From NCBI RefSeq assembly GCF_058153355.1, contig NZ_CM177019.1: a DNA stretch of 64,000 nt; one strand, written 5' to 3'. Each line of letters starts with the position of its first letter. The first letter of the stretch is position 1. Shown piece after piece: positions 7,746 through 8,047 of the stretch. The translations under genes and the position numbers were made by a program. Below the pieces are notes generated by a model. The model was not told the DNA's origin, ran no database searches, and saw only the letters and a list, made by a program, of their open reading frames with translations.

Positions 7746-7761
7746 AAGCAAACGTTTAGCT
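7746..7761 (-). promoter_or_regulatory. PurR-operator-like box upstream of yjcD/ghxP (second similar box at 7889-7904)
   Basis: aagcaaacgtttagct (12/16 to ACGCAAACGTTTGCGT) and gcgcaaacgttatcgt (13/16) in the upstream region. Confidence 0.4.
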
Positions 7762-8047
7762 CCGCGCATACAAAACGGGTGGTAAAAAAAAGCAAACGAT
7801 TATCCGGCGATCATAGCGGCTTTTTCAACCGAAGTTTGCTGCTTTTTTCTCTTTTATGGTCTTGACGATGAAAAACCAGGCAATTGATGCGCAAACGTTA
7901 TCGTCGATGCGCAAGATTGCAGCGTTATCGAGCCGCATACCGTTCAGGATTGCGATAAAAAATCGTCTGAGATGACAAAAATATTGCGGCTAAAAAGCGT
8001 CCTTTTACACTGGCGAAGAAACGCCGGTGACATACAATTAAAGCATC

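Follow-up and report, generated by a model that had tools for sequence, protein, structure and literature searches.

PurR operators of the classical type, the PUR boxes of purF, purT, purMN and purHD, are 16-bp dyads with a central CpG, which are occupied in a corepressor-dependent manner and serve targets in purine metabolism. Most of these promoters contain one operator, usually located between the -35 and -10 hexamers. Two PurR operators per promoter are established for purR and purA, and the operators O1 and O2 of purR and the intragenic operator of purB lie downstream of the start site and act on elongation. The base transporter genes xanP (yicE), adeP/yieG (purP), codB and tsx are also under PurR control; they were found in the same ChIP-chip study as the gene treated here, with one motif listed per gene, and follow the same logic of shutting down import. 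Farther away, lac (O1 with O2 or O3) and gal (the OE-OI repressosome with HU) contain an operator pair at a strictly conserved distance, which flanks or overlaps the promoter. PurR differs from these systems in that it is a dimer, without the tetramerisation domain of LacI. In a looping assay of the LacI-PurR chimera LLhP, operator spacing had no effect, i.e. no looping was seen.

The gene ghxP (yjcD), which codes for the already characterised guanine/hypoxanthine transporter GhxP, resembles the classical pur targets in having 16-bp dyads with a central CpG, in its corepressor-dependent occupancy and in its place in purine metabolism. Unlike at the classical promoters, the box at its promoter is the weakest one, and the strong boxes are located at -102.5 and +41.5. 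Compared with purR, purB and purA, ghxP combines an upstream box, a box overlapping the -10 hexamer and a box in the leader. The features of the window (the whole 64-kb stretch of DNA that was analysed) on which this comparison is based are as follows, with signed positions counted from the ghxP start site:

6282-7631, minus strand: ghxP (yjcD) coding sequence, the regulated gene; a 449-aa open reading frame, annotated as guanine/hypoxanthine transporter GhxP in 5,420 E. coli genomes and in K-12
7692-7707 (+88 to +103), no strand: box A, a half-site-like element, AAGATAACGTTTCGCT, 2.7-7.0 bits
7719-7744, minus strand: leader hairpin UUU-GCGAC-loop-GUCGC-AAA, directly 3' of box B and a U-run
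7746-7761 (+34 to +49), no strand: box B, proximal PurR operator, in the transcribed leader; AGCTAAACGTTTGCTT in the ghxP sense
7790-7805 (-11 to +5), no strand: box C, weak PurR-like operator GGATAATCGTTTGCTT, overlapping the -10 hexamer and the start site
7794 (+/-1 nt), minus strand: ghxP transcription start site, from SMRT-Cappable-seq, mapped through the K-12 alignment; 5' UTR of 163 nt
7799-7804 (-10 to -5), minus strand: ghxP -10 hexamer GATAAT, from the sigma-70-like scan and the comparative loci
7823-7828 (-34 to -29), minus strand: ghxP -35 hexamer TTGAAA, from the sigma-70-like scan; column identity 1.00
7889-7904, no strand: box D, distal PurR operator, ACGATAACGTTTGCGC on the ghxP sense strand; centre at -102.5 from the ghxP start site
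8045-8185, plus strand: SraL/RyjA, Rfam RF01408, 153 bits
8178-8642, minus strand: soxR, open reading frame
8728-9051, plus strand: soxS, open reading frame

The gene ghxP reads right to left, and the region between it and sraL (7632-8044, 413 bp) contains boxes D, C and B, all upstream of this transport gene. The 801 bases around the boxes match 5,420 of 5,426 complete E. coli genomes, mostly at 95-99% identity, with ghxP and soxR underneath. Box B is located 115-130 bp upstream of the ghxP ATG and box D 258-273 bp upstream. The 5' end of SraL is 141 bp past box D in the window; the first-pass annotation had correctly placed the distal box about 270 bp upstream and near SraL. At its other end (8154-8185, which includes the terminator), SraL shares 8 nt with the 3' end of soxR, encoded on the opposite strand, and a single bidirectional hairpin (8154-8184) serves both transcripts.

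Boxes B and D had been quoted in that annotation as aagcaaacgtttagct (7746-7761) and gcgcaaacgttatcgt (7889-7904), and both are exact; they are also identical in K-12. The 9-mer GCAAACGTT occurs twice in the 64-kb window, each time in one of these boxes, a count that is not significant by itself (1.06 expected; two or more in 26 of 100 shuffles). A position weight matrix was made from 27 published PurR ChIP motifs (Cho 2011, Table 1), from which the yjcD motif was excluded. With this matrix, box D scores 18.5 bits and box B 19.1 bits on the ghxP sense strand, within the range of the training sites (12.1-25.2) and hence of the published motifs. They are the two top matches in the window, with box B the best and the next match at 13.2 bits. 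Exact p-values are 3.3e-7 for D and 2.3e-7 for B, which corresponds to a chance expectation per box of 0.03-0.04 in 64 kb, or 2-3e-4 in a 413-bp intergenic region. Both boxes fit the 16-bp imperfect palindrome ACGNAAACGTTTGCNT with its central CpG, to which box C is a borderline match at 10.5 bits. Analysis of the two sequences and of their conservation, described below, confirms that D and B are high-scoring, deeply conserved PurR operators, far beyond chance.

PurR control of the guanine/hypoxanthine permease gene, as the first-pass annotation proposed, is borne out by published ChIP-chip, iModulon and adenine-repression data. The PurR ChIP-chip region 'ryjA/yjcD' (4275855-4276485, U00096.2 coordinates; Cho 2011, PMC3159470) has a log2 ratio of 2.08, the highest of the table, and was found with adenine only. 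The motif given for it, ACGATAACGTTTGCGC, is box D, read on the strand opposite to the distal-box sequence quoted above. The ChIP data named in the annotation as a check thus exist, in the form of an adenine-only peak that covers the region. In the work of Sastry 2019, ghxP belongs to the PurR-1 iModulon, and Supplementary Table 4 gives the box D motif at 4278206; repression of ghxP and xanP by PurR with adenine was described by Rodionova 2021. Kozmin 2013 cites PurR-dependent repression of ghxP, with a 4-fold drop with the adenine precursor HAP, and reports that ghxP determines sensitivity to HAP, 6-mercaptopurine and thioguanine. Among the examples that the text of Cho 2011 gives of the 23 genes significantly changed in the purR mutant, yjcD does not figure. 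PurR thus occupies the ghxP region in vivo only when adenine is supplied, and ghxP is repressed by purines within the PurR regulon. PurR control of ghxP is supported and had already been published; it is correct but ordinary and contains no new biology.

What is mildly new is the anatomy of three boxes, with a rigid 99-bp module and a structured leader. The published motif covers only box D, about 100 bp upstream of the start site, to which our comparison adds a box at the -10 hexamer, a box in the leader and the rigid distance between D and the promoter. A text search with the box sequences found only D, in Cho 2011, and B and C in no indexed paper (RegPrecise and Ravcheev 2002 lay outside this search).

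The ghxP promoter is well defined. TTGAAA-N18-GATAAT is the sole sigma-70-like site in 7560-8260 on both strands, matching at 10 of 12 positions, and is present in exactly one copy in each of the 80 Enterobacteriaceae loci compared (80/80). The start site is taken from the SMRT-Cappable-seq unit NC_000913.3 4278317-4279876 (forward strand, b4064 only), which has 86 TSS reads in M9 and 52 in rich medium. K-12 position 4278317 is the T five bases past GATAAT, or the neighbouring G if the table is 0-based, so that transcription begins 5-6 nt after the -10 hexamer. The Cappable-seq, Romero 2014 and ROSE paper supplements contain no start-site entry for ghxP. At boxes D and B, no second promoter passed the scan on either strand and no acceptable -10 hexamer was visible by eye; between D and the -35 hexamer, inspection by eye gave no convincing match to a CRP or IHF site.

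Box C and the promoter were absent from the first-pass annotation. At its 10.5 bits, box C ranks seventh in the window, under the weakest published ChIP motif (12.1). Its right half, CGTTTGC, is unchanged in 78 of the 80 loci. The left half would double as the -10 hexamer, with operator position 3 serving as the essential A of GATAAT; at this position nearly all known PurR sites have a G and box C has an A. Part of the conservation of box C is accounted for by the -10 hexamer.

For the comparison, ghxP loci from 80 Enterobacteriaceae species were used, and 700 bp upstream of each gene was scanned. Of these loci, 79 have box D, 78 have box C and all 80 have box B, and the boxes are kept across at least 25 genera. 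Among the 76-77 distinct sequences, column identity is 0.99 for D, 0.96 for C, 0.96 for B and 1.00 for the -35 hexamer, with the spacer and flanks at 0.55-0.73. Box B matches the PurR consensus at 13 of 16 invariant columns. The distance from D to C is 99 bp in 77 of the 77 loci with both boxes, and that from D to GATAAT is 100 bp; despite this fixed distance, 49 of the 60 columns between D and the -35 hexamer are less than 95% identical. The distance from C to B takes 22 values, from 42 to 205 bp, without helical periodicity among the loci examined, and box B is 106.5-182.5 bp from the ATG. In about a third of the genera (loci L024, L028, L031, L033, L043, L058 and others), 45-160 bp are inserted between C and B, which lengthens the leader and leaves the D-C and B-ATG distances intact; in Klebsiella, this insert contains a GC-rich hairpin, GCTCCCCC...GGGGGAGGC.

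A few lineages depart from this arrangement. Mangrovibacter is the only one with 101 bp between D and GATAAT and the only one in which CGTTTGC of box C is replaced (by CGCACCC or CGCAGGC), so the D-C spacing is relaxed only in the lineage that lost C. Since Mangrovibacter retains the promoter hexamers without CGTTTGC, this half-site is dispensable for promoter function, and its invariance elsewhere points to a bound protein. In Pluralibacter gergoviae, box D is decayed. Two Erwinia species, from outside the 80-locus set, have C and B at 45 bp; D is missing there, since the nearby end of the upstream GST gene leaves no room for it. The reduced-genome strain ESL0689, also from outside the set, has D and C at 99 bp and no B. 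When Erwinia (C and B) and ESL0689 (D and C) are taken together, it is clear that box C is nearly universal and that D and B are each dispensable in some lineage.

Two further conserved elements accompany box B in the leader. The block at 7762-7780 on the minus strand, CCGTTTTGTATGCGCGGAG, which includes GCGCGGAG, is located just 5' of the box and outside the PurR dyad; it is conserved across genera as strongly as box B itself, especially in GCGCGG, though the ATG that it contains varies. On the 3' side, the leader hairpin is found in almost every species, with 41 different complementary loop-proximal stems in 70 distinct leaders from the 80 loci (for example GUGAC/GUCAC, GUGGC/GCCAC and ACGGU/GCCGU) and a mean z-score of -1.85. 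Neither the leader nor the hairpin has a match in Rfam. An RNAalifold analysis of the whole leader, aligned with MAFFT, returned only invariant pairs, without any covariation, owing to misalignment in the hairpin region, and the hairpin was then analysed individually in each sequence. Its loop (7727-7736) is C-rich, CCCC or CCCCU, in 47 of the 70 distinct sequences, about two thirds of the species, and in this form is complementary to the invariant AGGGG of the ghxP ribosome-binding site CAGGGGA (7638-7644). From this complementarity, pairing of the loop with the ribosome-binding site could be a translational control element. In the window the loop reads GCACCAAAUU and in K-12 GCAGCAAAUU; the C-rich complementarity is absent from both.

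It is highly probable, in our view, that PurR, carrying hypoxanthine or guanine, represses the sigma-70-type promoter of ghxP by way of several operators. The distances from the centre of the published ChIP-chip region are 67 bp for D, 166 bp for C and 209 bp for B, and box B lies inside the region. For the other 25 ChIP-chip peaks with a motif, the median offset of the centre is 47.5 bp and the 90th percentile 142 bp. The resolution of ChIP-chip is too coarse for distances of 100-150 bp, so that D, C and B are not separated and binding is shown for the region. As the region centre is nearest to D, this box is favoured as the dominant site, with B and C neither proved nor excluded. Box D would be the dominant high-affinity site in vivo. 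From its fixed distance it would influence the ghxP promoter in one of two ways, by promoting occupancy of C or by disturbing whatever is bound upstream of the -35 hexamer. Box C is a putative low-affinity core operator, at which PurR would exclude RNA polymerase. Box B, by analogy with purB and purR, whose operators it resembles in its position downstream of the start site, may form a phase-independent roadblock or second barrier in the leader; the variable C-B spacing, without periodicity, fits such a role. When hypoxanthine or guanine is plentiful in the cell, ghxP would thus be shut together with de novo synthesis. Hypoxanthine and guanine are both GhxP substrates and PurR corepressors, which makes this a simple feedback loop of the textbook type, relevant for the engineering of purine-analogue uptake.

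The D-C pair has the fixed distance that characterises looped or cooperative operator pairs, in the 77 loci and in ESL0689, as in lac and gal. We know of no established mechanism for a dimeric PurR at a repressor site at -102.5, and to our knowledge neither looping by PurR nor cooperative action at a distance has been described. The 99 bp correspond to 9.4 turns at 10.5 bp per turn, so a simple same-face loop is not favoured. On bridging of two operators by the repressor, the only pertinent data that we found, those for the LLhP chimera, are negative. More elaborate readings, to which we assign a small probability, would have two PurR dimers acting jointly in a fixed three-dimensional arrangement across the 99 bp (a GalR-type loop or repressosome, or displacement of an upstream activator by PurR bound at D) or, as a separate matter, the leader hairpin exerting post-transcriptional control of ghxP. 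The gene is a convenient natural test case for a dimeric LacI-family repressor with several operators.

The several-operator reading was weighed against others. It is unlikely, though deserving of some weight, that only D works, with C conserved as the -10, discriminator and start region and B as part of a structured ghxP leader RNA. The ChIP-chip centre, much closer to D than to B, agrees with this, D is the sole box named in the literature, and B is flanked by conserved leader elements, GCGCGGAG on the 5' side and the U-run and covarying hairpin on the 3' side. However, B outscores D and is on par with bona fide operators, and its 16 bp form a DNA dyad that fits the PurR consensus, a feature not demanded by RNA structure. 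The promoter hexamers of Mangrovibacter persist without CGTTTGC, yet the 78 loci keep it, and Erwinia, without D, retains both C and B. Use of the boxes by another regulator of the LacI/GalR family, such as RbsR or CytR, instead of or beside PurR, is very improbable. The central AACGTT-type core is common to LacI-family operators, the left half of box A on the plus strand, CAGCGAAACGTT, has what we take to be a resemblance to an RbsR operator half-site, and a conserved direct repeat of TTGCGCAT flanks and overlaps D. Against this, D and B match the PurR-specific arms GCAAACGTTTGC, box A is not conserved, the PurR ChIP enrichment is at the maximum of the array and adenine-dependent, and ghxP co-varies with the pur genes. 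That the boxes are chance matches without function has practically no probability left: the 9-mer count alone would allow it in 64 kb, but p is about 3e-7 per box with both in one 413-bp region, and the conservation across at least 25 genera and the published in vivo binding refute it.

Equally doubtful as the involvement of another regulator is that box D belongs, instead of to ghxP, to SraL/RyjA or to a divergent RNA absent from the annotation. The 5' end of SraL is just 141 bp away from D in Escherichia, and the peak of Cho 2011 is labelled 'ryjA/yjcD'; the first-pass annotation had suggested that the distal box might regulate a different transcript near SraL. This suggestion does not hold, as the 99 bp between D and box C are kept in 77 of 77 loci, even where sraL is far off. 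In Escherichia, Citrobacter werkmanii and Trabulsiella, about 410 bp separate the ghxP ATG from the 5' end of sraL upstream. This distance is about 1,100 bp in Salmonella, C. amalonaticus, Enterobacter, Klebsiella, Raoultella, Kosakonia, Cedecea, Buttiauxella, Mangrovibacter and others. There, the intervening stretch is taken up by a GST-like gene of 222-230 aa in the same orientation as ghxP, and sraL and D are separated by about 870 bp or more. Examples of this gene are at 1487-2155 in locus L007 and 1420-2112 in L058; in Erwinia, the upstream gene has Pfam GST domains. Escherichia does not have the GST-like gene (window 7905-8044), and it is owing to its absence that sraL has D as its neighbour there and in only a few other genera. 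Box D is not positionally linked to sraL across genomes, and since it keeps its distance from the ghxP promoter where the GST-like gene intervenes (in Salmonella, Klebsiella, Enterobacter, Kosakonia, Buttiauxella and others), it is not an element of SraL. The scan found no plus-strand promoter-like site near D, and in ESL0689, where the retained D and C are next to a phage integrase gene, neither soxR nor a GST gene was called in the 1.5-kb flank upstream of ghxP.

Several other elements of the region were considered. Box A was examined as a fourth operator and is probably not a functional PurR operator: its score is low, its right half is mismatched at the conserved GC positions, and its conservation is poor in Klebsiella and others. 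GCAAAC (7839-7834), GTTTGC (7797-7792) and a T-run were considered as a bidirectional terminator or attenuator, which was ruled out, as the upstream arm varies without compensation (GAGAAAG, ATAAAC and others) across the 78 species with box C and the T-run lacks conservation. Translation of a leader peptide from the AUG in GTATGCGCGG was also rejected, this ATG being AAG, TTG, CAG or ACG in many genera.

Two entries in the comparison set carry unexpected names. Locus L002 (JAEWQV010000038.1), a 'Bacillota bacterium' MAG contig, contains a GhxP 100% identical to the E. coli protein, and L078 (CACSKA010000007.1), a 'Chryseobacterium sp.' assembly, contains an enterobacterial ghxP locus; both are probably contamination or mislabelled public records. 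Around box D, the minus strand at 7886-7914 reads TTGCGCATC-N11-TTGCGCATC, with two direct copies of TTGCGCAT(C) at a period of 20 bp. The right end of box D is one of them and the other is located 11 bp upstream, and both are conserved in most genera. Judged by its sequence, this repeat could be a site for another protein competing with PurR. Nearer to the gene, a second leader palindrome, GGCAGGGGAATGTCCGCC (7670-7691, minus strand), reads GTGGA...TCCAC in most genera, with a mismatch in Escherichia, and may form another leader hairpin.
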